Shown piece by piece: positions 1-13,758 of a DNA stretch of 16,384 nt. The notes under the pieces were generated by a model that worked only from the letters and a program-made list of their open reading frames with translations, made no database searches and had not been told where the DNA came from. Each line of letters starts with the position of its first letter. The first letter of the stretch is position 1. Made by a program: the position numbers and the translations under genes. This DNA comes from a virus (taxonomy: Duplodnaviria; Heunggongvirae; Uroviricota; Caudoviricetes), in IMG/VR virus record IMGVR_UViG_2563367003_000001; one strand, given 5' to 3'.

Positions 1-2160
<2,160 letters not shown>

Positions 2161-2236
2161 ACATGAGTCAATGGTGTAAGTATGTGAATGATATAAGAGG
2201 AAAAATAGAGCATAATCTCTACCTGAATGGCTATGT

Positions 2237-2272
2237 TGCAATACACACTGCAATACACACTGCAATACACAG
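2237..2272 (+). repeat. Three tandem 12-bp direct repeats TGCAATACACAC/G (candidate integrase arm-type sites or operator)
   Basis: TGCAATACACAC TGCAATACACAC TGCAATACACAG; related copies near the other end of the element (13310..13350). Confidence 0.8.
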
Positions 2273-2331
2273 AAATCAATGTACAAACCATTCAATTATC
2301 AACCCACAAATGAAGTGAATAAAGATTTGTT

Positions 2332-3093
2332 ATGAATATTATAGATACCCTTCAAAATGACCTAGAGCGCGCAGTAGCGCTTCAAAACATACTAATTGCA
2401 AGAGCTACAGGAGCCCAGGATGAAGCTAATAATGATTATTTGCTTCTAAGAACATATTTCTTACAAAATCCTCCTTTACATCAGCTATTACCAGAGTTTG
2501 TGAGAACTAATCGCTCACTAAAAGAATTTTGGGGATTTATAAAAAAGACTGAAAAGTATGCCCCCCGGAGAGATTTGATTTATAAGGCATTTCAGCCGAT
2601 GCTGGATTATCTAGAAGGGAAAAATAAAGCTCCAGCGGATGAAGACATATCTGATGTATTAAGAAAGTTTAACGAGGATGGAGTCCACGCCGTTTGGATA
2701 AAAGCACTTGAACGGCGCCATACAGATCCGGATGGTGCGATAACCTCCGCAAGAACACTTCTTGAAACAGTTTGCAAACACATTCTTGATGATATGGGCA
2801 TTCAGTATAATAATAAAAATATTGAAATGTCAGAGCTTTATAAAACTCTTTCAAAAGAACTTAACCTATCTGCCGACCAACATACTGAAAATATCTTCAA
2901 ACAAATTCTCGGCGGTTGTTCTGCAGTTGTAAATGGGTTAGGTACTCTTCGTAATAAACTCGGTGATGCACATGGAACGAACAGCTCATCAATTAAGCCA
3001 TCCCCAAGGCATGCCGAACTTGCAGTAAATTTATCAGGCTCAATGGCTCTTTTTTTAATTAACACTTGGTTAAACCTTAAAGATGGGAAATAA
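2332..3093 (+). CDS. HEPN-domain protein with Rx6H motif (Abi_C / abortive-infection-like), 253 aa
   Basis: C-terminal motif GTLRNKLGDAHG fits the HEPN R-x(4-6)-H signature seen in AbiJ/AbiU2/Abi_C proteins. AT-rich gene in the cargo position of the element. Family assignment from motif memory only. Confidence 0.6.
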   Translation: MNIIDTLQNDLERAVALQNILIARATGAQDEANNDYLLLRTYFLQNPPLHQLLPEFVRTNRSLKEFWGFIKKTEKYAPRRDLIYKAFQPMLDYLEGKNKAPADEDISDVLRKFNEDGVHAVWIKALERRHTDPDGAITSARTLLETVCKHILDDMGIQYNNKNIEMSELYKTLSKELNLSADQHTENIFKQILGGCSAVVNGLGTLRNKLGDAHGTNSSSIKPSPRHAELAVNLSGSMALFLINTWLNLKDGK

Positions 3094-3179
3094 CGTATAA
3101 TGAAGTAACACGAGCAATTAGTTAATCATTATACTCAGTCGATTAATTTATTTTGACGACTCGTAAGCAATTTTTCGAT

Positions 3180-3199
3180 GAGGGCGGAACTCCGCCCTC
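3180..3199. repeat. Perfect palindrome GAGGGCGGA-ac-TCCGCCCTC in a 360-bp non-coding spacer
   Basis: 9-bp arms, 2-nt spacer; no flanking U-tract on either strand, so not a canonical intrinsic terminator. Confidence 0.4.
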
Positions 3200-3495
3200 G
3201 GTGCTAACCTATGAGAAACGATATCTCTTCCACCGATACCATAATATTAGGTATCGCGAAGAAGCCCCAAAATCAGTGTGTTGCTTTTACTACCCAAACT
3301 ACCTGTAGTTTCATAGTTGAGTTGCAAATTTGCAATTCGACTACCAGCCACAAGGCGTAAATTTGCGTCGTCAGGAATATCAACGAGTTAGCATATGAAT
3401 AGGCCAAACGGCCACAAACCTCACTTTTGAGGCTTGCTCATTTATTAGCTGGCTATGGTAAGGCCCATTTTGGGGCCGTCGAGAAAATCAAAGAG

Positions 3496-3771
3496 TTATC
3501 GCCGCAGTCTGTCAGGCTTCTTCCACTGGTACGATGCAACGTTCTGGCGTTGTCCCTGCCTCCGCCTAGCTGCCAGTATAGCCAGCACTTTGGTGCGGAT
3601 GACTAAGCAATCCTGTCCGTTCAGTTCTATACCGTCACGCCACATAACCTCAGCAACCACACGAGCGTAATTTTCAGCGGTGACACTGCCCGGCTGCGTG
3701 GCCTGTTCGTCATGCTGGTGGCTGACTCCACCAGCATAGCAGATTACTTTCAGTAGTTCGGATTCAGTCAT
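3496..3771 (-). CDS. Hypothetical protein (91 aa), last gene of the packaging operon downstream of terS
   Basis: ORF 12 bp after the Nu1-like stop, same strand. No recognised similarity; an overlapping plus-strand ORF 3455..3670 is less protein-like. Confidence 0.4.
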   Translation of the reverse strand: MTESELLKVICYAGGVSHQHDEQATQPGSVTAENYARVVAEVMWRDGIELNGQDCLVIRTKVLAILAARRRQGQRQNVASYQWKKPDRLRR

Positions 3772-3782
3772 AGCGTACTACG

Positions 3783-4310
3783 TTACTTATCCTTATTCAG
3801 CTGCAACTTATCCGGTACGTTTCCTGTACTTTCCATCAGATAATCAGCCAGTATCTGTGGGAGGTTGTCAGCAACGCCGGCACTGGCATTACAGGCTTTA
3901 GCCACTTCCTTTTTAAGTCCATCCAGCATAGCCGGAGTCATCTGTGGGAAGCGCCTTTGCATGGTAAGCGGCAGGCTGTCCATGATAGATGAAATCTGAC
4001 TCGCCAGTTTGGAAAGAACATACATACAAAACTCTGTATCAATAACGTCGCCGCGTTCGCGCTCGTTTTTAAGCTCCTGCGCCTCTGCCTGTGCTGTCAG
4101 TAATCTGATCCTGACGCGTAAAAGTTCATCGTCATCAATATCGCCCGTTTCGTTTGTAATCTGGCTGATTGCATTGTTAACCCGATTATCTATTACACTG
4201 GCAACATCATAGAACGCCTCACGGCCCTTACGCTCGACGGGAATCACTCCCCACTTATCGAACGCAGTGGCGCTTACACGGCAACTTTTTGCCATGTTTT
4301 TTTTGTTCAT
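3783..4310 (-). CDS. Small terminase subunit, lambda Nu1-like (satellite-encoded TerS)
   Basis: Middle and C-terminal regions align with lambda Nu1 from memory (AQAEAQELKNERERGDVIDTEFCMYVLSKLASQISSIMDSLPLTMQRRFPQ versus AQADAQELKNARDSAEVVETAFCTFVLSRIAGEIASILDGLPLSVQRRFPE). Sits ~150 bp downstream of the cos-like site, as in lambda. Start chosen at MNKKNMAK; ORF track extends to 4334. Confidence 0.8.
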   Translation of the reverse strand: MNKKNMAKSCRVSATAFDKWGVIPVERKGREAFYDVASVIDNRVNNAISQITNETGDIDDDELLRVRIRLLTAQAEAQELKNERERGDVIDTEFCMYVLSKLASQISSIMDSLPLTMQRRFPQMTPAMLDGLKKEVAKACNASAGVADNLPQILADYLMESTGNVPDKLQLNKDK

Positions 4311-4399
4311 CAGGTGTAATTTCATTGATACCACAACTTAATTACTGTTTCAGGTTGGTGTATTGATTGTATTTTTCTCTTATTATTCATACAGATATA

Positions 4400-4500
4400 G
4401 CGAACAACAAAACCACCACCAGTCCCCTTAAAATGCTCATAAATAGAGAAAACCCGCGCGCCTGACGCCCCGTAGCCTGTCAGATCGCCGGAAAGGACCC
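4400..4500 (-). other. Lambda-like cos site (cosQ-side flank, cosN-equivalent at 4459..4470, start of cosB)
   Basis: Minus strand reads GGGTCCTTTCCGGCGATCTGACAGGCTACG GGGCGTCAGGCG CGCGGGTTTTCTCTATTTATGAGCATTTT. Recalled lambda sequence is ...GGGTCCTTTCCGGTGATCCGACAGGTTACG GGGCGGCGACCT CGCGGGTTTTCGCTATTTATGAAAATTTT. Flanks are near-identical; the central 12-mer differs at ~5 positions. Confidence 0.7.
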
Positions 4501-4526
4501 GCCAGCCAGAGCGGGCCCTAATTTCA

Positions 4527-4910
4527 TCAACCAATCAGCTTATAGCGACCATCCCGTGCATTGCGGCGTACACGCTCAATCTTGAGGCATAGCGCCGCAT
4601 CTGGCTTTTTTGGGACAGGTACGCGGCAATATTCAGAAGCGCGAGGAATATTATTTATCCAGTCGATCACTTCACTTAAATACCAGGCCTTACGCCCTTC
4701 CGTAACCTGCACACGCTCCGGGAACTCTCCACTAGCCTCAAGGTTTAGCAGTGTACGCCGACTCAGGGTTGTAATTTCCATCACCTGATTCATATCAACA
4801 AGGCGCTCGCTTAAACACATTTTGTCAGCGATAGCTTTTAATTCCTCTACAGCTGGATTCGGGTACATCATTTCGGCAATTGGCTTAAGGTCATTGTAAT
4901 CATTCTGCAT
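4527..4910 (-). CDS. AlpA/MerR-like HTH DNA-binding protein (127 aa), between the decoration gene and cos
   Basis: MEITTLSRRTLLNLEASGEFPERVQVTEGRKAWYLSEVIDWINN fits the AlpA-family HTH pattern. RBS GGGGGA 5 nt upstream of ATG at 4910. Function (regulator versus packaging factor) unknown. Confidence 0.6.
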   Translation of the reverse strand: MQNDYNDLKPIAEMMYPNPAVEELKAIADKMCLSERLVDMNQVMEITTLSRRTLLNLEASGEFPERVQVTEGRKAWYLSEVIDWINNIPRASEYCRVPVPKKPDAALCLKIERVRRNARDGRYKLIG

Positions 4911-4921
4911 TGTATCCCCCT

Positions 4922-5263
4922 TTACACACGAGCCAGCGGCTGAACAGAAATACCTGAGCCAACAAACGCGGCAACCTTTGCCGACAGTTCTCTTACAGAC
5001 TCAGGCCAGTTCAGAGCATCAACATTTAAAACACCTGTCTTATAAACCTGTGCCTGTGTTTTTTTCGCTGTGTCGATTTGTACAGCGGAAACATAAACCG
5101 CTTTGCCTGCGCTCGTTCCATCCCATACCACTAGCGCACCAGTTGCATCTTCCTGCATCAGTGGCGTAAACGCAGGTATTACCCCTTTATTGGCTGAAAA
5201 TATCCCCAGCGTAGTAACCAGTGCTTCAGTGCCAGACATGAGTTCAGTGTAATGAGTAGCCAT
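4922..5263 (-). CDS. Head decoration protein, lambda gpD-like (satellite-encoded)
   Basis: 113 aa; AFTPLMQEDATGALVVWDGTSAGKAVYVSAV...QVYKTGVLNVDALNWPES...AFVGSGISV parallels lambda gpD ([31 protein letters not shown]...[18 protein letters not shown]...[10 protein letters not shown]). Strong RBS AAGGGGGAG. Confidence 0.8.
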   Translation of the reverse strand: MATHYTELMSGTEALVTTLGIFSANKGVIPAFTPLMQEDATGALVVWDGTSAGKAVYVSAVQIDTAKKTQAQVYKTGVLNVDALNWPESVRELSAKVAAFVGSGISVQPLARV

Positions 5264-5272
5264 TGCTCCCCC

Positions 5273-6313
5273 TTAGCCAATGCGAACGGTAACAAAACGA
5301 TTGATGCGGGCCGGTATTGGCTGTGGTGCTGAATGTGTCTGCACATATTCAATAGCCGGATCACCAGGCACAATATAGTTTTTCGGTGCAAGTTCGGCTT
5401 TAGTCAGCCCCATTCGGATTAGCTCCGGATCCTGAATACCGCCATAGGCGACAATCCCCTGAAGAGCCGTATTGCCAAGCACCATCAAATCAGGATCAAG
5501 GAAATGTTTTTCAGTTCCGTCCTCGTCGGTATAACGCCCGCTGTATACAACAATCGCAACATCGCCCATATACCCTTTAAAACTCACCGAATCACCAAGG
5601 TCTTTAAGGGCCGTTTCCAGTTCGGAATTAGAACCACGACGGGTATCCAGAGCCTCTTTTATCGCTCTGAATGAACGGTATTTCTTCCATACATTACCGC
5701 CCATAATGATGATATTAGTGACGCCCTCACTAAATTCTGCGTAGCTCTCAATATCATCATTTGGATCAAAAGTTTCTTTATCCTTACCTGACCACTCAGC
5801 ACCGCCAGACTGAGTGATGATATTTTGTGGTTTAATATTCCAGTCCAGCTCATAACGTTCAATACCATCGCCCTCAATGATATTTTTCCCCGTTGTGATT
5901 GCCTGAACGGCAAGCCATTCAATACGTGCACGAATAGCTTTAGCCTGATTTACAATCGCCTGTTTAACTTTAATATTACGCGCTCCAAAAGCATTGTATT
6001 GCTCAGGTGATACACCAGCAGGGCGCACAGCTAACTTATTTGGATCAATGCTGCTTTTCGGCTTCATATAGCCTGGACGAATTGTTTTTGATTCGTACCC
6101 TTCGTCACGTGAAACTTTACTACCCACCATAGGAGAACAAAACGCTGCAATTGGGATATTTGGATCGTCGATTGTATCAAGAATAATATCGCGCGATTCA
6201 AACATTACCGAGCGAGTAAAAAACAAACTGGTAAACAACGCATTTAGTTGTTTTTGTACATCTACAGCATTAACCACCTGTACAAGCTGGGTAGGCGAAT
6301 ATAAATCAACCAT
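5273..6313 (-). CDS. Major capsid protein, lambda gpE-family homolog (divergent, satellite-encoded)
   Basis: Shares blocks with lambda gpE: ITQSGGAEWSGKDKETFDPNDDIESYA, RRGSNSELETALKDLG, GDVAIVVYSG, GYMKPK. Start set at MVDLYSPTQ (RBS AAGAGG); ORF track extends upstream to 6487. Confidence 0.85.
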   Translation of the reverse strand: MVDLYSPTQLVQVVNAVDVQKQLNALFTSLFFTRSVMFESRDIILDTIDDPNIPIAAFCSPMVGSKVSRDEGYESKTIRPGYMKPKSSIDPNKLAVRPAGVSPEQYNAFGARNIKVKQAIVNQAKAIRARIEWLAVQAITTGKNIIEGDGIERYELDWNIKPQNIITQSGGAEWSGKDKETFDPNDDIESYAEFSEGVTNIIIMGGNVWKKYRSFRAIKEALDTRRGSNSELETALKDLGDSVSFKGYMGDVAIVVYSGRYTDEDGTEKHFLDPDLMVLGNTALQGIVAYGGIQDPELIRMGLTKAELAPKNYIVPGDPAIEYVQTHSAPQPIPARINRFVTVRIG

Positions 6314-6487
6314 ACGCATCCTCTTTGCATTCATTAAAAATAATTGTGGATATATGCTATCACCGATATTTGTCATGCGAATACATGCAACCGAGTGCAA
6401 TGTTGTATAAAGTTTTGGGATGACAACTTCAGCACGGATAATTAGTGTTAATATCTTCACTCCCTTTGGTCTGGATTTATGTAGCAT

Positions 6488-6521
6488 GCCGGAAAATTTA
6501 TTTTTTTTCCGGCCTTTTTTA
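6488..6521 (+). terminator. GC-stem hairpin with T-tract (plus-strand orientation) between ssb and the capsid gene
   Basis: GCCGGAAAA-tttatttt-TTTTCCGGC followed by CTTTTTTA on the plus strand; on the minus strand the hairpin is not followed by a U-run. Confidence 0.4.
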
Positions 6522-6531
6522 TTGGCAATAT

Positions 6532-6981
6532 TTAAAACGGAATATCATCTCCCCATTGCTCATTATCTCCCACTGGTGGATGGCTTCCTTGCTGATCTGC
6601 CTGTTGTTTTGCTCTGTTCAGTGCGTCAGTAGCCTGACCCTGTTGATCTTTTTTGCCGCCCGGTCGCACCGTTCGCGCACTGATTACGCTGTCTGCGATA
6701 ACCTGCCAGCCCTGCCGCGTTTCACCGTTCTGTCCAGTCCACTGGCTCACCTGCATATTACCCGCCACGCTCAGGAGTTCGCCTTTGTGATGCTTTGCCA
6801 GCGTGTCGGCTTGTCTGCCAAACGCCAGCACAGATAACCACATCGTCGCCGTTCCGTCATCTGCCTGGCTGCATGGCAAAGATACCGCCATCCGTGCCAG
6901 TGTCATGGGTGTTCCCTTGCTGGTATGTTTTACCTGTGGGTCGTCCACCAGCCGCCCGTAAGCTGCTATTTGCGCCGTCAT
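6532..6981 (-). CDS. ssb: Single-stranded DNA-binding protein (SSB) with C-terminal acidic tip ...WGDDIPF
   Basis: 149 aa; OB-fold-like N-terminus (AYGRLVDDPQ...), Gln/Gly-rich linker, and the DDIPF tail characteristic of bacterial/phage SSBs (E. coli SSB ends DDDIPF). Confidence 0.8.
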   Translation of the reverse strand: MTAQIAAYGRLVDDPQVKHTSKGTPMTLARMAVSLPCSQADDGTATMWLSVLAFGRQADTLAKHHKGELLSVAGNMQVSQWTGQNGETRQGWQVIADSVISARTVRPGGKKDQQGQATDALNRAKQQADQQGSHPPVGDNEQWGDDIPF

Positions 6982-6992
6982 GCTGCCTGCTC

Positions 6993-7235
6993 TCAGGACT
7001 TAATATTGATGGTTGTCACTTCCTCCGCTTCGGCAATCTCCCGTTCGGTCAGCGTGGCAAAGTTTGCAGCCGCCGTTGTCATGAATGCGCTTATCAGTTC
7101 GGGATGTGCTTTCGCGTATCCTTCCCCGGCGTTGCGGTCTATTGCCTTAATCGCCACCCTTAGCCAGTGTTCAGCCATATCAAGGGCGCGGTAATGTGGC
7201 TTTATATGTTTGTTCAGTTTTCCTGATGTGTGCAT
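6993..7235 (-). CDS. Hypothetical protein (80 aa) immediately downstream of the iteron origin
   Basis: ORF with GAGGGGG RBS ~10 nt upstream; no recognised domain. Confidence 0.45.
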   Translation of the reverse strand: MHTSGKLNKHIKPHYRALDMAEHWLRVAIKAIDRNAGEGYAKAHPELISAFMTTAAANFATLTEREIAEAEEVTTINIKS

Positions 7236-7280
7236 TTTTATTTTTACCCCCTCGTTTAAAAAGTTTTTTGTGCACCACCA

Positions 7281-7510
7281 CCTTGTCTACCTTGTCTACC
7301 TGATTAGTTATCAGGCCAGTAATGGCGCGGGTTTCAGGGAGGTAGACAGCCCCAAATAGCTGTCTACCTCATCTCTACCCGTCTCCTTACCTGTCTACAA
7401 AAATGGGTAGATAAGGTAGATAACAGGTAGACAGTGAAAAATAGTTATCTACCTGCATTAATACATTGAAATAAAAGTATTTTATTTCAGTCAGGTAGAC
7501 AAGGTAGATA
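7281..7510. repeat. Replication origin: iteron array (>=11 copies of GGTAGAYA/TRTCTACC in both orientations) plus AT-rich segment
   Basis: CTTGTCTACCTTGTCTACC (7282..7300), GGTAGACAG (7341), TGTCTACC (7361), CTGTCTAC (7391), GGTAGATAAGGTAGATAACAGGTAGACAG (7407..7434), TATCTACC (7447), GGTAGACAAGGTAGATAAC (7493..7511); AT-rich 7457..7490. Lies directly 3' of the helicase gene. Confidence 0.8.
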
Positions 7511-7524
7511 ACCATTGCCATTTT

Positions 7525-9276
7525 TTATAAAAACGCATCGCAATCATCAGTAGTCGTTGCGTTGGTCTGCGTGACTCCCTTAACTTTTCGCGTAATATAT
7601 TCATATCCGTAAACTTTCGCCGCTGACCTCATAGCCTTTCCGAACTCATTCACGCTCAAACATTTCCCCTTTCCTGTATATGCCATGAAGGCCATATAGA
7701 CACGGTAAAGGCTGTTTCTGGTCGTGTACTTCACGGTGTCACCACCACCGCCCATCATTAGCCCACGAGCTTCCTCCAGAAACTCCAGCGCCGCGCAAAG
7801 CTCAACAACCGGATCCGTTTGCTGCTTTATTGCCAGAGCTTCATCACCGTCACGCTGTTCCAGTAATAAAGCCCGTGCCTTTTCAGGGTCAGCAAAATTA
7901 GCCAGCAAGCGGCGGATAATTACGGGGATTTCTGCCGCTATCTTTTCCGGTAATTCCTTGTCTTTTTCGTCCTCCCTTACAATGTTGTCGAACCGGAAAA
8001 TCACCCGACGGCGTGACACACCTCCGGCCCGTTCGGTAAAGATCATCGGGTCGTTATTGGTTGCCAGTACCACCGCCCTTATTATCGTCGTGAATCGCTT
8101 CTCATATTTCGGGTTAATTTCAACGGGATCGCCTCCCGTGATTTTCTTGATGCCCGTGCCTTCCCCCGTATATTTCGGCTGATCGGCAAGGACGATAAGA
8201 CGACTCCCGACAACCTGCGCACGCCCTCCTGCATCATCGAGTGATGTCATCTCTGCGCTTACGGTGTTCTGTTTGCCAGCAAGCAGGGTGGCAATATGGG
8301 TAAATGTACTCTTACCGCTTCCCCCGTCTCCGGTGGCCTCAATGAACATCTGCCAGTCGTACCGGTTCGCCATAATCATGTACAGCGCGGCACATATACG
8401 CATCATCTTGCGCGGGTCTTTTCCGGCTGCGTGCTCAAGCCATTTATGAAAGTTTGGCGCGTTATCGCGGATGTTCTCCCCTGGTGCTGGTGGCGTGTAC
8501 TCAATGCCGTTGTGCGTGGTGATCCAGTTCTCCGGCGTGTGCGGGGAAAATTCCCCCGTTTTCAGGTCAAGCGCACCATTGGCGAACGGCAGCAAATCGC
8601 CGGACGGCTCGCCCATTGGTTCGGCAATAACTTTTAACGCTTCAACGGCGTTATTGATCACGCGTTTGCTGAAAGTGGCCCTGTGCTCTGAATAGATCGC
8701 CACCATTTCGCGGCTCAGCTCCATTGTGCTGATCGGACACCATACCCCGCCGCGCCATACGTGAACGATTTCACTTTCCGGATGCACACAAACGCCATCA
8801 AAGCGCTCGGCAAGCAGCTGCGCGCGCTCACTGTCTGCCATCTGTGAAAGTTGCGCCTTTTGCTTCGTCGGAAGATTAAGCACCAGGCTTTCCCCACGCT
8901 CGCATTCCTCTTTGAGTCGCGGCAACTGGTCGGATAAATCCACTGGGCTGGTGTCAGTAATCCCCGCGTATTCGTGTACGGTCTTCACTCCAGCCACAGC
9001 CAGTAACGTAACAATCTGCGTCATGCTGTGCTCTGTGATATGTCCTGCGCGGTAAACACGCACACACTGACGATCTTCATCAATGATCCGGTAATCGGTG
9101 ATGTTTTTCAGTTGCTCATCAGCCAACACGACAGGCGGCACATCGTCGGCGGCAATATGTTTACCCGCCCATTCCTGCCACTCTTTCGCATGGCTCCACG
9201 CATCACTACCTGCAAAGATGATTATCTCTGTCAGTCTGTCGCGTGGCTGTTTTTTTAAGTTCGGTGCCAGTTTCAT
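7525..9276 (-). CDS. Replication initiator: SF3 helicase of the D5 / P4-alpha family (primase-helicase-like), 583 aa
   Basis: Walker A GDGGSGKST and surrounding D5_N/P4-alpha C-terminal-like sequence; followed by the iteron origin. The N-terminal ~250 aa may be a primase-like domain (not verified). Confidence 0.75.
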   Translation of the reverse strand: MKLAPNLKKQPRDRLTEIIIFAGSDAWSHAKEWQEWAGKHIAADDVPPVVLADEQLKNITDYRIIDEDRQCVRVYRAGHITEHSMTQIVTLLAVAGVKTVHEYAGITDTSPVDLSDQLPRLKEECERGESLVLNLPTKQKAQLSQMADSERAQLLAERFDGVCVHPESEIVHVWRGGVWCPISTMELSREMVAIYSEHRATFSKRVINNAVEALKVIAEPMGEPSGDLLPFANGALDLKTGEFSPHTPENWITTHNGIEYTPPAPGENIRDNAPNFHKWLEHAAGKDPRKMMRICAALYMIMANRYDWQMFIEATGDGGSGKSTFTHIATLLAGKQNTVSAEMTSLDDAGGRAQVVGSRLIVLADQPKYTGEGTGIKKITGGDPVEINPKYEKRFTTIIRAVVLATNNDPMIFTERAGGVSRRRVIFRFDNIVREDEKDKELPEKIAAEIPVIIRRLLANFADPEKARALLLEQRDGDEALAIKQQTDPVVELCAALEFLEEARGLMMGGGGDTVKYTTRNSLYRVYMAFMAYTGKGKCLSVNEFGKAMRSAAKVYGYEYITRKVKGVTQTNATTTDDCDAFL

Positions 9277-9572
9277 TTTTTGCCCCTGAATGCGTTAATC
9301 ATGCTTTTCATTTTCTGGATGTTTCCCCGCGCTTTTTCCCTGCTGATGGGCTTACTGCGGGGTGCGGCATATACCAGGGAAAAATCACGCCGGAACTGAT
9401 AAACAGGCATCACGCAGTCATAGCTATACCCCTCACGACGGTAAGTGATGCGCCGTTCTGCCACGCCTTTAATCGTTACCGTGCCGCCGTATTTATCGCG
9501 GTAAATATCGCCGTTCATAAATTCAGGCCGAGCGGGGCCGCTGGCAATAAAGCCAGAATTTTTCATTTCCAT
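9273..9572 (-). CDS. Hypothetical protein (99 aa), translationally coupled to the helicase gene (ATGA overlap)
   Basis: ORF in operon context; no recognised motif. Confidence 0.45.
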   Translation of the reverse strand: MEMKNSGFIASGPARPEFMNGDIYRDKYGGTVTIKGVAERRITYRREGYSYDCVMPVYQFRRDFSLVYAAPRSKPISREKARGNIQKMKSMINAFRGKK

Positions 9573-9589
9573 ATTATTTATTCCTCGAC

Positions 9590-9811
9590 TTAACTCGACT
9601 TATTTGATAGCAGGGCACTATTTATTGCGTCATTGAGTTTTTCTGCTGCTTCATCAATAAGTGACAACAGGCCATAAGCAATATTTGCATCTTCATTGTC
9701 ATTTATGCAATCAAGCCACATATTTAATATTGCTTTTGCTGAATTATTTAAAGTTAATGAACTTTCTGCACATGCTAACAATTTAAAAAAGACTTCCCGT
9801 TCTGTATTCAT
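9590..9811 (-). CDS. Hypothetical protein (73 aa), AT-rich
   Basis: ORF in operon context; composition differs from neighbours. Confidence 0.4.
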   Translation of the reverse strand: MNTEREVFFKLLACAESSLTLNNSAKAILNMWLDCINDNEDANIAYGLLSLIDEAAEKLNDAINSALLSNKSS

Positions 9812-10003
9812 TTAATCCCCCACCAGCTTACTTTCTTCCTCAATCAAAAAACTAGCGACACTTCCCGAAAGACGCGCCAGTAGGCTCGCCAGTGCGGATA
9901 TATCAGCATCTGTAATTTTGTTCGGGTATACCTCAAGAAGGCGGCAAATAATTTCTGTCTGGTGCGCACGTTCAGCGGCTTCGTGTAATGTGATTTCCTG
10001 CAT
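9812..10003 (-). CDS. Hypothetical protein (63 aa)
   Basis: ORF abutting the next gene with no spacer (stop/start coupling). Confidence 0.4.
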   Translation of the reverse strand: MQEITLHEAAERAHQTEIICRLLEVYPNKITDADISALASLLARLSGSVASFLIEEESKLVGD

Positions 10004-10188
10004 TAATGCACCTCTTTTAATTCATACACTGCTGAAATAATGACTTGTGATAAGCCATATTCTGATGATTCGCTTCTCACCGCAGCAATAGCCGTCTGAA
10101 CATTAACAGCCTTCACATTCTGAGCGATACCAATTGTGTGGCCTATTGGGTTAACAGCTCGGGCAAATACACGGAAGGTTTTAAGCAT
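10003..10188 (-). CDS. Hypothetical protein (61 aa)
   Basis: Start ATG overlaps the stop of the upstream 65-aa ORF (ATGCTTAA). Confidence 0.4.
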   Translation of the reverse strand: MLKTFRVFARAVNPIGHTIGIAQNVKAVNVQTAIAAVRSESSEYGLSQVIISAVYELKEVH

Positions 10189-10378
10189 GACTCACTCCCT
10201 GGCGGATTTTTGCAGCGAATACAGCAACACAACCGGACGGGCAACGGCTACGCGCTTCGCGTTCCGTCCAGGCGGTTACGTGGATGATTTGAGATTCTCC
10301 GGCACTCAGTGCCAGAAAACGCCACACAAAGGCCGTTTGTGTGTGTACAAGGTGTGGTATATGATTTACAGCAACCAT
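10181..10378 (-). CDS. Hypothetical protein (65 aa), first gene of the leftward operon
   Basis: Strong RBS AGGAGCCGTT-ATG. It is the 3' part of the 243-aa ORF 10181..10912 in the track; only the portion downstream of this RBS is considered real. Confidence 0.5.
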   Translation of the reverse strand: MVAVNHIPHLVHTQTAFVWRFLALSAGESQIIHVTAWTEREARSRCPSGCVAVFAAKIRQGVSHA

Positions 10379-10390
10379 AACGGCTCCTAG

Positions 10391-10568
10391 TTTACGTTGT
10401 TGGTTAGACGCCCCGTATGTGTTCCCAGCACTGCGGGGCGTTGCTCTTTGTATTTCAACAATTCTTTCGGTGTGTTTCATGTTATGAGCGCATGAAACAC
10501 ACGTCAAGGCTTTTTGTATTTCTTTTTTTGTGTATACTGAAACACACCGATGATTAGGAGTTTCAGAA
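10391..10568. promoter_or_regulatory. Divergent promoter/operator region between the leftward operon and the rightward RHH gene
   Basis: Inverted repeat GACGCCCCG...CGGGGCGT (10408..10440); palindrome TGTGTTTCATG...CATGAAACACA (10472..10500); second direct copy TGAAACACACC (10539..10549); -10-like TATACT (10531..10536); RBS AGGAG before ATG at 10569. Confidence 0.55.
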
Positions 10569-10874
10569 ATGGCAACGGCTAACAAAAACGCAAAATCACA
10601 ACTGACAACTGTCAGAGTCCCACTAGATGTTATGCAAGGGATGGAATCCGTTAAGCTGGACGGTGAAAGCAATGCCGGATTTATCGTAACCGCCATGCGC
10701 GGTGAAATCGCCCGCCGCCAGGCAGAAGGAAGCGGAGAAAATCCCCTCGTGTCTTCACTGGATGCCTTAGCTAAGGTCGAACAAATCGGCATCAAGGCAG
10801 CGGAGGAAATCGGGCAACTCGTAGCCGTCGCTCGTGAAGAACTCCAGCGGCGTAAAGCCAAAGAATCTGAATAA
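10569..10874 (+). CDS. Putative ribbon-helix-helix-type transcriptional regulator (101 aa)
   Basis: N-terminal beta-strand/helix pattern (TTVRVPLDVMQGMESVKLD...NAGFIVTAMRGEIARR) plus coiled C-terminus. AGGAG RBS. Divergent from the replication operon. Fold assignment is inference. Confidence 0.5.
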   Translation: MATANKNAKSQLTTVRVPLDVMQGMESVKLDGESNAGFIVTAMRGEIARRQAEGSGENPLVSSLDALAKVEQIGIKAAEEIGQLVAVAREELQRRKAKESE

Positions 10875-11224
10875 TTAGTATCAGCGCCGTGATGTGAGTA
10901 ACTACGGCGCATTGCTATGTAAATACTGGCAATAAACAGAAAAGGTAGTTCTACTCCGAATAATTTTATCTGACACTACTCCTGAACTAACATGCGCTTA
11001 TCTTACAGGATATAAATATAAATCCATAAAATCACGATTAAATAAAGTCGCTCCAAACATAAACCACACCCAACGCTTAACAAGATAGCAACAAACAGGT
11101 AAATAACTTGCAGAAATATTTATCGCAAGGATTATCATTATTAATGACAAATCACTTTACCAAGTCATTCCCCTCTCTTATCATAAAGAGAAAGTAATAA
11201 ATAAGTTAAGGGAGTTAGAATGCT

Positions 11225-11761
11225 ATGAATCTAAAAAAAATAGCCACAAACACAAAAAACAAGATAACAGAAACATTTAATAAACTTATATTAGAGGCAT
11301 CTAAAACCCCCACACAAGATGAAATTAAAATACTTGAGAGAAGGAGTAAGAAGTTTAATTACTCCTTTTTCTCATACGCAGTCACAGGAGCTATAATAGT
11401 TTTTTGCTCTCAACCATTAATTAAATACGCAAACCCAATACTTATTTTATTGAGTGGTCTGTTACTGTCTATCATCATTATCATTCTCAGAATGATTTAT
11501 ATTTCACAAGCGAATGCATCATGGACAACCAAAAAACGCTCACATGTACTAGTTCATTTTCTTTCTGCATGTTTCATAGCATCAACATTGACGTTGCTAT
11601 ATCAGGCTTACGATAATAACATCACACACAAATTGTACTGTAAAAATATACAACAACTTATTGAAAAAAGGATAGAAACAGAAAAAAACATCAGCATATT
11701 CAGTGGGATGCAATGCACCCCGGTATATGATTACTCTTTATTTGGATTTAATCTCTTATAA
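11225..11761 (+). CDS. Small membrane protein (178 aa, ~3 predicted TM helices), very AT-rich cargo gene
   Basis: Hydrophobic segments FFSYAVTGAIIVFCSQPLI, ILILLSGLLLSIIIIILRMIYI, VLVHFLSACFIASTLTLLY. Strongly AT-rich versus the flanks. No recognised family. Confidence 0.55.
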   Translation: MNLKKIATNTKNKITETFNKLILEASKTPTQDEIKILERRSKKFNYSFFSYAVTGAIIVFCSQPLIKYANPILILLSGLLLSIIIIILRMIYISQANASWTTKKRSHVLVHFLSACFIASTLTLLYQAYDNNITHKLYCKNIQQLIEKRIETEKNISIFSGMQCTPVYDYSLFGFNLL

Positions 11762-11770
11762 AGAATGTTA

Positions 11771-11804
11771 TTACTGATTTGAGTACAAATTCTCAAATCA
11801 GTAA
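11771..11804. terminator. Bidirectional intrinsic terminator hairpin between convergent genes
   Basis: 13-bp perfect stem TTACTGATTTGAG / CTCAAATCAGTAA with 8-nt loop, A/T-rich flanks on both sides; lies between the plus-strand membrane-protein gene and the minus-strand alpA gene. Confidence 0.65.
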
Positions 11805-11830
11805 TTCATAATATTTTATTCTGAGATAAT

Positions 11831-12058
11831 TTAAACTACCCACTCACCTCGAATCCATGCCTGCACTTCTGAAAGACGATATGCAACAGCAGTGGAACCA
11901 ATCTTGATCCGCTTAGGAAATTTTCCTTCCTTCTCCAGCTTCCAGCGTGTGCTGTTCGCAAGAGTGGTTAGCTCCCGACATTCTTTCTCACGGATCATTC
12001 GGTCAATGTTAGGAATGTACTCCAGACCCTTTTTATCAACAATTGCCATTTTTTTCAT
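11831..12058 (-). CDS. alpA: AlpA-family HTH protein (excisionase/Vis-like regulator), 75 aa
   Basis: IREKECRELTTLANSTRWKLEKEGKFPKRIKIGSTAVAYRLSEVQAWI fits the AlpA pattern; immediately downstream of the integrase gene. Confidence 0.8.
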   Translation of the reverse strand: MKKMAIVDKKGLEYIPNIDRMIREKECRELTTLANSTRWKLEKEGKFPKRIKIGSTAVAYRLSEVQAWIRGEWVV

Positions 12059-12059
12059 G

Positions 12060-13295
12060 TTAACCAGCCTTTTGTTTGAGGATTGTCACTTTTGAATCAG
12101 CACCTGCGATGCTATTGAGATATGTAGTCCAGAGTTCCAGAGCATCCAGTTTTTTAGCCATAAACTTACTCCGGTTGTAAACACCTGCCACGCCAGGTAG
12201 CGCATGGCCTAACAGTTGTTCTACTACATAAAATTCAACACCGAGATCACTTAGATGAGTAGATAGCGTTCTTCTAAGGTCGTGTAGTGACCATTGTTTT
12301 TCATGGCCCAAACGTTTACCGATTTTCCCCCCAATCTTGCTTACGCTTTCTCTAATTCGCAGACTTCCCAGCACATAACCAGTATGTTTTGTCTCTTCGT
12401 GAACATCCGTTACCCACTGTCGTAGAATTTCAGGTACTGGTCTGACGATTTCAACACCAGTTTTTGAGTGATCTTTTGGTACAGTCCAAACCCAACTTTC
12501 GAGATCCCATTCGCTCCATTCTGATAATCGGGCTTCACTCATTCGACATCCAAATACTGTACAAAGCACAAACATTTTTCGCGTGTATTCAGACATTAGT
12601 TTTAAATCAGGCTCGACAAAAATTGCCTTCCAGAGCTGGCCGAGTTCGGCTTCATCCAGAACCCGATCCCGCTTACCTGCAATCTGCCCCACATCACTCA
12701 TGCGCAAATCCTTTAAAGCATCACACGTCGCGTACTGGCGTACCCGACAAAAACGAAGAGCTAATTTAGTGTCAGAAAAAACATACGCCGCCATAACTGG
12801 TGCATTACGTTTAATTCGGTCAAAACAGTCCAGCCATTCATATAGGTGAGTGTCATTTACGGGCAAATGACCGATATAGGGAAAGATATGCTTTCGAAAT
12901 CTGCCAAGCGTTACAGCATGAGTTTTACGACGCACCTTACAGTAATTTTCATACCAGTAATTTAGTGCATCCTCCACTGTAACCGGCTTTAAGCGTTCTT
13001 CAGCCTGAATCTTAATCTGGATACGCGGATCACGTTTGTCAGCCAACCAACCACGGCACTCGTCGCGCTTTTCCCTTGCCTGTTTGAGTGACATATCAGG
13101 ATATTTACCCAACGTTAGCCAGACCGGAGCAGCCCGGCCACCTGCTAACCTGTAGAAGAAAACAAAGCTCACAGCCCCTTTAGTACTCACACGAATAGAA
13201 AGCCCCTTTCCATCAGCAATGGTGATCTGCTTTTCTCTGGGTTTCCCCAGATATCCTTTAAGCGCTTTGTCGCTCAGTTTGTTCTCGCCAGCCAT
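12060..13295 (-). CDS. int: Tyrosine site-specific integrase, P4-type
   Basis: N-terminal arm-binding-like region (LSDKALKGYLGKPREKQITIADGKGLSIRVSTKGAVSFVFFYR), catalytic-box residues (HDLRRT, LLGHA...GVYNRS). Start set at MAGENKLSDK; ORF track extends to a GTG at 13346. Confidence 0.9.
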   Translation of the reverse strand: MAGENKLSDKALKGYLGKPREKQITIADGKGLSIRVSTKGAVSFVFFYRLAGGRAAPVWLTLGKYPDMSLKQAREKRDECRGWLADKRDPRIQIKIQAEERLKPVTVEDALNYWYENYCKVRRKTHAVTLGRFRKHIFPYIGHLPVNDTHLYEWLDCFDRIKRNAPVMAAYVFSDTKLALRFCRVRQYATCDALKDLRMSDVGQIAGKRDRVLDEAELGQLWKAIFVEPDLKLMSEYTRKMFVLCTVFGCRMSEARLSEWSEWDLESWVWTVPKDHSKTGVEIVRPVPEILRQWVTDVHEETKHTGYVLGSLRIRESVSKIGGKIGKRLGHEKQWSLHDLRRTLSTHLSDLGVEFYVVEQLLGHALPGVAGVYNRSKFMAKKLDALELWTTYLNSIAGADSKVTILKQKAG

Positions 13296-13309
13296 TTTTA
13301 GCCCCAAAA

Positions 13310-13350
13310 AGCAATACAAGCTGCAATACAGAGATGATTGCAACACACAG
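13310..13350 (+). repeat. Direct repeats related to TGCAATACA (AGCAATACA, TGCAATACA, TGCAACACA) upstream of int
   Basis: Same motif and orientation as the 3x12-bp array at 2237..2272 at the opposite end of the element. Confidence 0.7.
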
Positions 13351-13457
13351 ATAACGAGGAAAATTCAGTGAAAGCACCAGATAAACTTATTCTTTATTAT
13401 CAAAAGATTAAGTGTAAAAACCAGCAACTACACGAAAGCCTCAGAAAGCCATGCTAA

Positions 13458-13703
13458 GTGCTTCGGCTTGACATATCCCGGCGTAAATTCAGAGGTGGAG
13501 CCGCCACGGGAGCGGATAACCTCACCGGAAACAATCGGCGAAACGTACAGCGCCATGTTTACCAGCCCCGGAATTTGTGAGAGATAGACTTTCTCCGTGG
13601 TGAAGGGATAGCTCTCACGGAAAAAGAGACGCAGAAACAGCGGATCAAACTTAAATTTCTGCTCATTTGCCGCCAGCAGCTGGGCGGTTGTGTACATCGA
13701 CAT
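13458..13703 (-). pseudogene. E: Lambda-like major capsid protein E, N-terminal fragment (residues 1 to ~91), interrupted by the inserted element
   Basis: MSMYTTAQLLAANEQKFKFDPLFLRLFFRESYPFTTEKVYLSQIPGLVNMALYVSPIVSGEVIRSRGGSTSEFTPGYVKPKH matches the lambda gpE N-terminus; the frame then reads 9 unrelated codons (LAWLSEAFV) into the element and stops at 13428. Confidence 0.9.
13459..13468. repeat. Right junction core (attR-like): TGCTTCGGCT
   Basis: Identical to 2151..2160; lambda E sequence continues on the high-coordinate side. Confidence 0.7.
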
Positions 13704-13758
13704 AAAAAAATCCCGTAAAAAAAGCCGCACAGGCGGCCTTTAGTGATGAAGGGTAAGG

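Follow-up and report, generated by a model that had tools for sequence, protein, structure and literature searches.

The helper-embedded phage-inducible chromosomal island (HE-PICI) 11capE (Eco567.11capE), described by Mageeney and co-workers, occupies site E:Phage_cap_E:80 with a 10-bp identity block (PMC10111431). Satellites of this kind are built from integration, dynamic ('Bro'), replication, and late zones, and the concept of the dynamic zone as a slot is shared with the Gram-negative islands (GN-PICIs) (PMC10111431). In 11capE every non-hypothetical gene is co-oriented, and late transcription of satellite and helper is proposed to run through int and alpA (PMC10111431). The DNA analysed here is the 16,384-nt IMG/VR virus record IMGVR_UViG_2563367003_000001, the full length of which is termed the window. 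It is Escherichia coli DNA, with identical stretches in many complete genomes, and it carries an 11capE-like HE-PICI within the capsid gene of a lambdoid prophage. A 178-codon open reading frame (ORF), named ORF178, follows alpA immediately in the dynamic zone; the account of 11capE does not discuss it (PMC10111431). ORF178 is very probably accessory membrane-protein cargo of the satellite; it belongs to a protein family without annotation, and it may act against phages at the cell envelope.

Defence hotspots in satellites and prophages are established, as is the functional class of small membrane exclusion proteins. Hotspots of P4-like satellites and P2-like phages were reportedly described by Rousset et al. 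in 2022. The site of ORF178 resembles them as a fixed satellite position with conserved borders, between which unrelated and often anti-phage genes swap. It differs in belonging to another satellite family, in lying next to alpA rather than cos, and in the partly regulatory content of its zone.

Two exclusion proteins of temperate phages provide the closest comparisons for the gene itself. SieA of phage P22 has 164 residues to the 178 of ORF178, with three hydrophobic segments in each. Its gene is AT-rich as ORF178 is (34% GC against 41% for the surrounding 8-kb stretch), and is a single gene of a temperate element with its own promoter, on the strand opposite the adjacent late gene. SieA differs in lacking the C-terminal Cys...Cys motif described below and in the spacing of its segments, one being N-terminal and two lying near the C-terminus. 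HK97 gp15 is said to be a moron of a lambdoid temperate phage, encoding a small inner-membrane protein that blocks genome entry, the mechanism proposed here for ORF178. It is reportedly much smaller than ORF178, with a single transmembrane (TM) helix, and PHROGs and Pfam scans give no similarity between the two.

The Carrier Satellite

The carrier element, itself already known, spans ~2161-13458. Its gene order begins with int and alpA, followed on the other strand by ORF178 and a YlcI/YnfO-like gene. Next come an Icd-like gene, three small ORFs, a DUF4222 gene, a D5-type primase, and a single-stranded DNA-binding protein (SSB), and then a capsid E homologue, a decoration protein, a second AlpA-like gene, a Nu1-like gene, and an AbiJ/Abi_C-like gene. 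Pfam matches fall in zone order (Phage_integrase, Phage_AlpA, D5_N/DUF5906, SSB, Phage_cap_E, Phage_Nu1), and PHROGs adds head-decoration phrog_49. The zones expected of a capE HE-PICI are all present: int with AlpA, a dynamic zone, primase with SSB, and a late zone with its own capsid gene. The element also lies inside the prophage major capsid gene and is co-oriented with it, bordered by a short identity block; RefSeq marks split capsid pseudogenes in identical loci.

The likeness to 11capE extends to the matching order of int, alpA, D5-type primase, SSB, capsid E homologue, decoration protein, and second AlpA-like gene, to the insertion in a lambdoid major capsid gene with a 10-bp direct repeat, and to a variable zone after alpA. 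A difference from 11capE is that cargo at both ends of the island varies between copies. At the far end, the site of the AbiJ/Abi_C-like gene holds DUF262 (NsnA-like) and HEPN genes instead in E. coli strain 104, in which ORF178 is identical.

A Variable Slot Next to alpA

A preliminary description of this locus regarded ORF178 as cargo, and comparison across related elements bears this out. Of 5426 complete E. coli genomes, 179 contain the int-alpA module (window 11840-13346), at 95% identity or above in nearly every case. The ORF178 cassette, always beside alpA, accompanies it in 68 of these 179 (68/5426 of all genomes), so that ORF178 is absent from 62% of the E. coli elements with the same integrase. 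The borders of the cassette are sharp. On the left, megablast homology to ORF178-less elements that share the YlcI-like gene ends at ~10916-10919; on the right it resumes at ~11826-11840, within a few bases of the alpA stop codon.

Elements sampled without ORF178 are otherwise intact, and every one of them holds other genes at the slot, several of defence type. Seven other occupant types are found in 12 such elements. They include a DUF2971 protein with a SWIM-finger gene (L002, L003, L030), a TIR-domain protein (L004; PADLOC PDC-S35 7e-67; Pfam CAP12-PCTIR_TIR 1e-33), a putAbiC membrane protein (L026, L027; PF16872, 3e-16), and unrelated hypothetical proteins of 265, 273, and 467 aa (L025, L005, L028, L029). 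Among PICIs further removed that have the YlcI-like gene (L058-L060), the slot is occupied by a BRO-N protein, a 58-aa ORF, or a pseudogene. The putAbiC gene is the occupant most directly comparable to ORF178, with the same slot, the same strand, and a position downstream of a YlcI-family gene, in elements whose alpA-int DNA (11840-13346) is 97-98% identical. It differs in following the YlcI gene by 33 bp in an apparent operon, whereas ORF178 follows by 350 bp with a promoter-like site of its own.

Because ORF178 is not conserved in all related elements, the cargo reading stands, and its absence from most of them rules out a core satellite gene. Presence or absence, with replacement by unrelated genes between conserved flanks, is the pattern of hotspot cargo. 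Deviant GC content, with a promoter-like site and a hairpin (both consensus matches) inside the cassette, is that of a moron.

The same distribution bears on whether ORF178 could instead be a factor in the life cycle of satellite or helper, adjusting lysis timing, cell division, or helper DNA entry or exit to favour satellite spread. The zone after alpA does hold regulatory or kil-type genes in P4 and other PICIs (PMC10111431). Divergent homologues of ORF178 also recur at the slot in capE satellites of three hosts, in a family of only ~110 members, and a Pantoea homologue lies 2 kb from a D5-type primase. Such a role is nevertheless very unlikely given the otherwise intact elements that do without the gene, its orientation against satellite and late transcription, and the occurrence of family members in ordinary prophages and in chromosomal sites without satellites. 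Nor does ORF178 belong to a lysis cassette or resemble class I-III holins in size and topology.

An Unannotated Protein Family

That ORF178 has no recognisable family, as had been stated, holds for the curated libraries, since Pfam, PHROGs, PADLOC, and NCBIfam return nothing above threshold. It does not hold beyond them, as remote homology searches uncover a family of ~110 proteins that is wholly unannotated. A word-indexed search retrieves only E. coli copies at 88% identity or above, and phmmer over 1.84 billion cluster representatives adds ten proteins of similar length that align in full at 24-36% identity. Profile searches then extend the family to its present size; none of the members has a Pfam domain, and all are named 'hypothetical'. 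Alignments of 11, 17, and 45 members were used.

Several other searches returned nothing: the PDB searched by sequence with the family profile (at E ≤ 1), 50,697 phage genomes searched by tblastn for ORF178, and the literature searched with the RefSeq protein accession. Candidate domains were rejected. Pfam DUF443 (PF04276) reaches 19.2 bits (E = 0.0011) against a gathering score of 26.2 and matches only 2 of 11 members, a compositional match to TM segments. DUF443, DUF4131, Saf_2TM, DUF4231, and the like are sub-threshold in ORF178 and the 11 members, with none in more than two, and are likewise noise of TM composition.

Members share a plan of three TM helices, a TM1-TM2 loop of six residues (motif QPLxK(F/Y)xxP), and a C-terminal tail. 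For the ORF178 protein the motif of this loop, one of the most conserved parts, is given as QPLxKYxNP. In the tail, C139, Q143, and C164 are invariant and F159 and R165 nearly so, within the consensus ANDxRCLAIQxDMLSAxPxRxDxPDLFQALGCRPQG. Residues P64, C139, Q143, F159, and C164 of ORF178 are in register with 44 other members of the family, defined here by three TM helices, the loop motif, and the pattern C-x3-Q...F-x4-C. Members from Gamma- and Alphaproteobacteria alike retain the fold, the motif, and the pair of cysteines. The family is rare, the pattern of its enterobacterial subfamily (from a narrower alignment) occurring in 3 of 185,579 species genomes, and every member examined lies 7-23 GC points below its flanks.

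Genomic Context of the Relatives

Outside E. coli, the two closest relatives (35% and 32% identity) come from capE satellites of Kosakonia sp. S29 and of an IMG/VR contig, where they fill the same slot. The integrases of these satellites are 86-89% identical to the one here, and their AlpA proteins 92-95%. Because divergent relatives recur there in satellites of other genera, the association of the family with the slot is more than that of random cargo. In the Kosakonia satellite two genes share the slot: a 198-aa ORF adjoins alpA, and beyond it, on the opposite strand, is the homologue of ORF178. This satellite also has a different replication module, in which an AAA_25 protein takes the place of the D5 primase.

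The family is found mostly in accessory sites of prophages and satellites. Prophage relatives occur as an opposite-strand insert between head genes (L010, L011), in the tail-gene region of a Sphingomonas prophage beside a Gp49/HTH (helix-turn-helix) toxin-antitoxin pair, and near an integrase beside BrnT/BrnA. The latter two, distant members (L062 7001-8142 and L063 7001-8194), lie directly upstream of their same-strand toxin-antitoxin pairs (Gp49/HigB-like with HTH_3, and BrnT with BrnA), within opposite-strand moron clusters. A relative in Pseudomonas mandelii (L008) lies 48 bp downstream of a retron type XI reverse transcriptase (RT)-protease (PADLOC 1e-174), in an island with SoFic and DUF4238 genes; the retron gene and the family member (6303-8447) have ~39% GC in a region of 56% GC. 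Singletons are found on a Pseudomonas-like metagenomic contig and beside a truncated integrase and a umuDC-like pair. Across the contexts examined, the family has no constant partner gene.

These neighbours bear on the main rival to an entry block, in which ORF178 would be an abortive-infection or toxic membrane effector. It would remain inert until a phage cue and then oligomerise and depolarise the cell, perhaps restrained by a partner such as the YlcI-like ribbon-helix-helix protein. RexB, AbiC/AbiP-type proteins, and the two-TM effectors of retrons and of cyclic-oligonucleotide-based anti-phage signalling systems (CBASS) are models for a membrane-depolarising protein of this sort. The putAbiC protein at the same position and orientation, directly after the YlcI gene, in sister elements speaks for this reading, and the retron neighbour in the same low-GC island and the adjoining toxin-antitoxin pairs point the same way. 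The allelic patch described below spans the cytoplasmic loop, where a cytoplasmic trigger could be sensed.

An effector is nevertheless unlikely, and less likely than an entry block. It lacks a constant partner, since the Kosakonia and IMG/VR satellites have a homologue but no YlcI-like gene; ORF178 has no homology to putAbiC; and the best-conserved residues face the periplasm rather than the cytoplasm. The retron neighbour was seen once, and the closest relative of that member (L009) has a different upstream gene. Retron type XI with a possible membrane partner would be new, as type XI is described as a single-gene system (PMC7736814). Partnership with it is not supported, given the single adjacency, the different gene upstream in L009, and the lack of any RT near ORF178.

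The ORF178 Gene and Its Signals

ORF178 runs intact on the plus strand from the ATG at 11225 to the TAA at 11759-11761 as a 537-bp gene, opposite to int and alpA as the preliminary description had it. When the 919-bp cassette is shuffled 2000 times with dinucleotides preserved, the longest ORF has a mean length of 56 aa and a maximum of 131 aa. Because none of the 2000 attains 178 aa, the length of ORF178 is far beyond chance even in DNA rich in the bases of stop codons. The GC content of the gene is 31.3% and flat across codon positions (31/32/31). The corresponding values are 44% for alpA, 45% for int, 52% for the YlcI-like gene, and 53% for the primase, in agreement with the earlier remark that ORF178 is the more AT-rich. 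The flat codon-position profile and the absence of a match in curated libraries are what a chance ORF in AT-rich spacer DNA would show. That explanation is extremely improbable and can be set aside, given the shuffles, the full-length homologues (24-36% identity) with invariant residues in other genera, and the confident structural model that the family alignment yields.

A candidate sigma-70 promoter precedes the gene (Table 1), within 350 bp of upstream DNA that is near-invariant among alleles; its function is suggested by the consensus match. The Shine-Dalgarno sequence is followed after 5 nt by a two-codon mini-ORF, the stop codon of which overlaps the ORF178 start. The overlap could, speculatively, mean translational coupling or attenuation of ORF178.

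ORF178 and alpA converge on an inverted repeat that lies between them and was previously described as a perfect bidirectional terminator. The hairpin is indeed perfect (dG -22 kcal/mol, z -6.1), and no shuffle folds equally well. Its role as a bidirectional terminator finds partial support: the stem has just 4 G-C pairs, the terminator consensus is passed only by the minus-strand reading, at the end of alpA transcription, and on the plus strand the T-run starts ~8 nt past the stem. A terminator function is consistent with these features. As the hairpin lies inside the cassette, it moves together with ORF178. No RNA family is found in the cassette by an Rfam scan at E ≤ 1; a C4/isrK-type immunity RNA is therefore not present there.

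Architecture and Topology of the Protein

The three TM helices and basic N-terminal segment proposed earlier are recovered in the protein. Hydropathy places hydrophobic segments at residues ~46-64, 71-93, and 108-126, and the N-terminal 45 residues contain 11 K/R against 5 D/E. In enterobacterial members the TM2-TM3 loop invariably contains ~3 K/R and lacks acidic residues, and the totals for this loop over 45 family members are 81 K/R against 30 D/E. This charge distribution suggests an inner-membrane protein with the N-terminus in and the C-terminus out. Because of the charge pattern, the conserved TM1-TM2 loop and the two-cysteine tail are placed in the periplasm. A C139-C164 disulfide, plausible since the tail is placed there, probably locks a C-terminal helical hairpin.

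The AlphaFold 2 (AF2) model built on the 17-sequence alignment is all-helical, with a predicted local distance difference test score (pLDDT) of 85 and a predicted template modelling score (pTM) of 0.60. Its helices span residues 3-26, 31-66, 71-94, 100-147, and 152-161. The third TM helix runs on into a long helix bearing C139, and C164 follows the last short helix. A model from the single sequence was too poor for use (pLDDT 63).

Alleles within Escherichia coli

All 25 copies of ORF178 examined are intact, and they comprise 13 protein variants. Two allele classes, about equally common in E. coli, differ almost solely in a mosaic patch (Table 1), and the amino-acid differences between them all fall at residues 83-118, which stretch from the end of TM2 across the cytoplasmic loop into the start of TM3. 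The periplasmic tail is nearly invariant. Within the patch the synonymous divergence (dS) is 0.47 and the nonsynonymous divergence (dN) 0.36; outside it dS is 0.03-0.04 and dN at most 0.01. Because dS rises along with dN, the patch is a segment recombined from a distant allele and not a site of local acceleration. As judged from the sequences, it is a sharply bounded, in-frame recombination tract from an unsampled divergent allele. The ratio of ~0.7 within it would reflect weak constraint or diversification.

Sparse sign of purifying selection within the species is also what would be expected of a host trait unrelated to phages (stress, envelope, or virulence) or of a near-neutral passenger silenced by H-NS. 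The gene is very AT-rich, as DNA subject to xenogeneic silencing typically is; many of the strains that carry it are avian-pathogenic or extra-intestinal isolates; and some relatives are chromosomal singletons among metabolic genes. Such an origin is quite unlikely for a protein whose fold, motif, and cysteine pair are kept across two proteobacterial classes, whose frame is intact in every copy examined, and whose contexts are mostly phage and satellite accessory sites. Also against it, a protein predicted to lie on the periplasmic side of the inner membrane would lack surface exposure of the Bor/Iss type.

Proposed Role at the Cell Envelope

Position, topology, and analogy point to an exclusion or abortive-infection role. 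ORF178 would be transcribed from its own promoter, against the late genes of satellite and helper. Because it is antisense to this late transcription, expression would be expected in the quiescent, uninduced lysogen, and the hairpin would keep the ORF178 and alpA transcripts apart. The protein would insert in the inner membrane with its N-terminus in the cytoplasm and its C-terminus in the periplasm, and its most conserved parts, the TM1-TM2 loop and the C-terminal hairpin, would both face the periplasm. From there it would act at the envelope against incoming phages, most likely by blocking genome entry (superinfection exclusion), with protection of the cell that carries the helper-satellite composite as the outcome.

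An entry block is favoured because the conserved surface faces the periplasm and the anatomy of the gene parallels that of P22 sieA. Among the features of the superinfection-exclusion class, to which P22 SieA, HK97 gp15, and T4 Imm belong, a membrane protein and a location in a temperate element are present, and expression in the lysogen is suggested by orientation and the promoter-like site. For an anti-phage role of any kind, the likelihoods for and against are evenly matched; an entry block specifically is doubtful. The whole explanation, that ORF178 is a horizontally acquired, self-contained accessory gene ('moron') of the variable zone of an 11capE-type HE-PICI and acts against phages at the envelope, is plausible, its probability falling slightly short of the midpoint. 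A broader proposal is unlikely: that the family comprises unrecognised single-gene envelope anti-phage factors, mainly of prophages and satellites, and is a recurrent, fast-evolving resident of the alpA slot in capE HE-PICIs that shields the helper-satellite composite against competing phages, heteroimmune lambdoid ones for instance, by disturbing genome translocation at the inner membrane, with the recombining patch setting specificity.

Several observations weigh against an envelope anti-phage role. No similarity to any known exclusion or defence protein is found in PADLOC, PHROGs, Pfam, or hhalign comparisons with P22 SieA and putAbiC. PADLOC-DB v2.0 gives 0 families at E ≤ 0.1 and PHROGs 0 matches for ORF178. 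SieA has no sequence relationship to it (hhalign probability 0.1%) and no PHROG match in common, and putAbiC is likewise unrelated (hhalign probability 0.1%). Fold searches return generic helical hairpins only. The positive-inside signal weakens in distant, mainly Sphingomonas-type, members, and the two invariant cysteines could bind metal instead of forming a disulfide. Promoter and terminator are consensus matches only, of which AT-rich DNA yields many (9 found against 5.7 expected). Guilt by position is weak, as many hotspot genes are not defences; the dynamic zone also houses regulatory genes (Bro-N, SWIM, HicB-like), and some family members, such as one among ordinary chromosomal genes in an enterobacterial genome, are chromosomal singletons outside any mobile element. 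Finally, because codon-position GC is flat and dN/dS is ~0.7 in the sole variable patch, the within-species data add little evidence of constraint.

Other Features of the Locus

The coordinates of the locus are collected in Table 1. The YlcI-like gene, the conserved left neighbour of the slot, occurs without ORF178 in many other PICIs. It is present here in its long form, and sister elements (L025, L026) have forms of 59-64 aa at that position, one short YlcI-type form being annotated as a HicB-family antitoxin. A weak Pfam match to an Rv0623-like ribbon-helix-helix factor suggests that the protein may be a DNA-binding regulator of a divergent early promoter.

Table 1. Coordinates of features in and around the ORF178 locus (positions refer to the window, except for the Kosakonia gene, which is numbered on its own locus)
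Feature	Position	Strand	Evidence or remark
Prophage capsid E, C-terminal fragment	1370-2146	same strand as int	
Prophage capsid E, N-terminal fragment	13428-13730	same strand as int	
10-bp direct repeat TGCTTCGGCT	2151-2160 and 13459-13468		ends of ~11.3-kb satellite
AbiJ/Abi_C-like gene, 253 aa, AT-rich	2332-3093	+	opposite strand, far end of island; Pfam Abi_C 1e-23; PADLOC AbiJ 2e-21
YlcI/YnfO-like gene, 101 aa	10569-10874	+	conserved left neighbour, same strand as ORF178; NCBIfam YlcI_YnfO_N 2.7e-17
Swappable cassette (promoter region, ORF178, hairpin)	~10920-11838		megablast break-points; 0.9 kb
Candidate sigma-70 promoter, TTTACC / 17 nt / TATCAT	11156-11184	+	consensus scan, 9/12 matches; ~40 nt 5' of ATG
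Shine-Dalgarno GGGAG of ORF178	11210-11214	+	read from sequence
Two-codon mini-ORF, ATG CTA TGA	11220-11228	+	stop overlaps ORF178 start codon (ATGA); read from sequence
Allelic mosaic patch, codons ~79-119 (nt 234-357 of ORF)	11458-11581	+	two allele classes differ almost solely here
Inverted repeat, putative terminator	11770-11805		perfect 14-bp stem, 8-nt loop; between convergent ORF178 and alpA
alpA, 75 aa	11831-12058	-	conserved right border of slot; Pfam Phage_AlpA 2.8e-15
int	12060-13346	-	mechanical ORF starts GTG, 428 aa; RefSeq and other calls ATG 13295, 411 aa
198-aa ORF, Kosakonia sp. S29 (L015/L052/L055)	8543-9139	-	no Pfam or PADLOC match

The 10-mer CTGCAATACA occurs twice near the left end of the satellite (2248-2257 and 2260-2269) and once upstream of int (13321-13330). 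These copies may be integrase arm-type sites; a 'doubled motif' is reported for the attP of HE-PICIs (PMC10111431). In the helper prophage, just downstream of the capsid fragment and beside the gene for DNA-packaging protein FI, is a full-length Rfam match to the Hfq-binding small RNA isrC at 1068-1190 (minus strand), with 150 bits against a gathering score of 39.

Significance

What is new here is modest: a first delineation of the unannotated family, its repeated occurrence across several genera in the slot beside alpA of capE satellites, and the mosaic allelic patch. Hotspots in satellites and prophages are a productive source of new anti-phage genes, and this locus offers a candidate that is cheap to test, a single gene that brings its own signals, occurs naturally in two alleles, and has clear relatives. 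Without an anti-phage role, ORF178 would be just another hypothetical membrane protein of a mobile element already known. If it does exclude phages, the family would be a new single-protein entry-block or abortive-infection family, and helper-embedded PICIs would be using their alpA-proximal zone as a defence slot.

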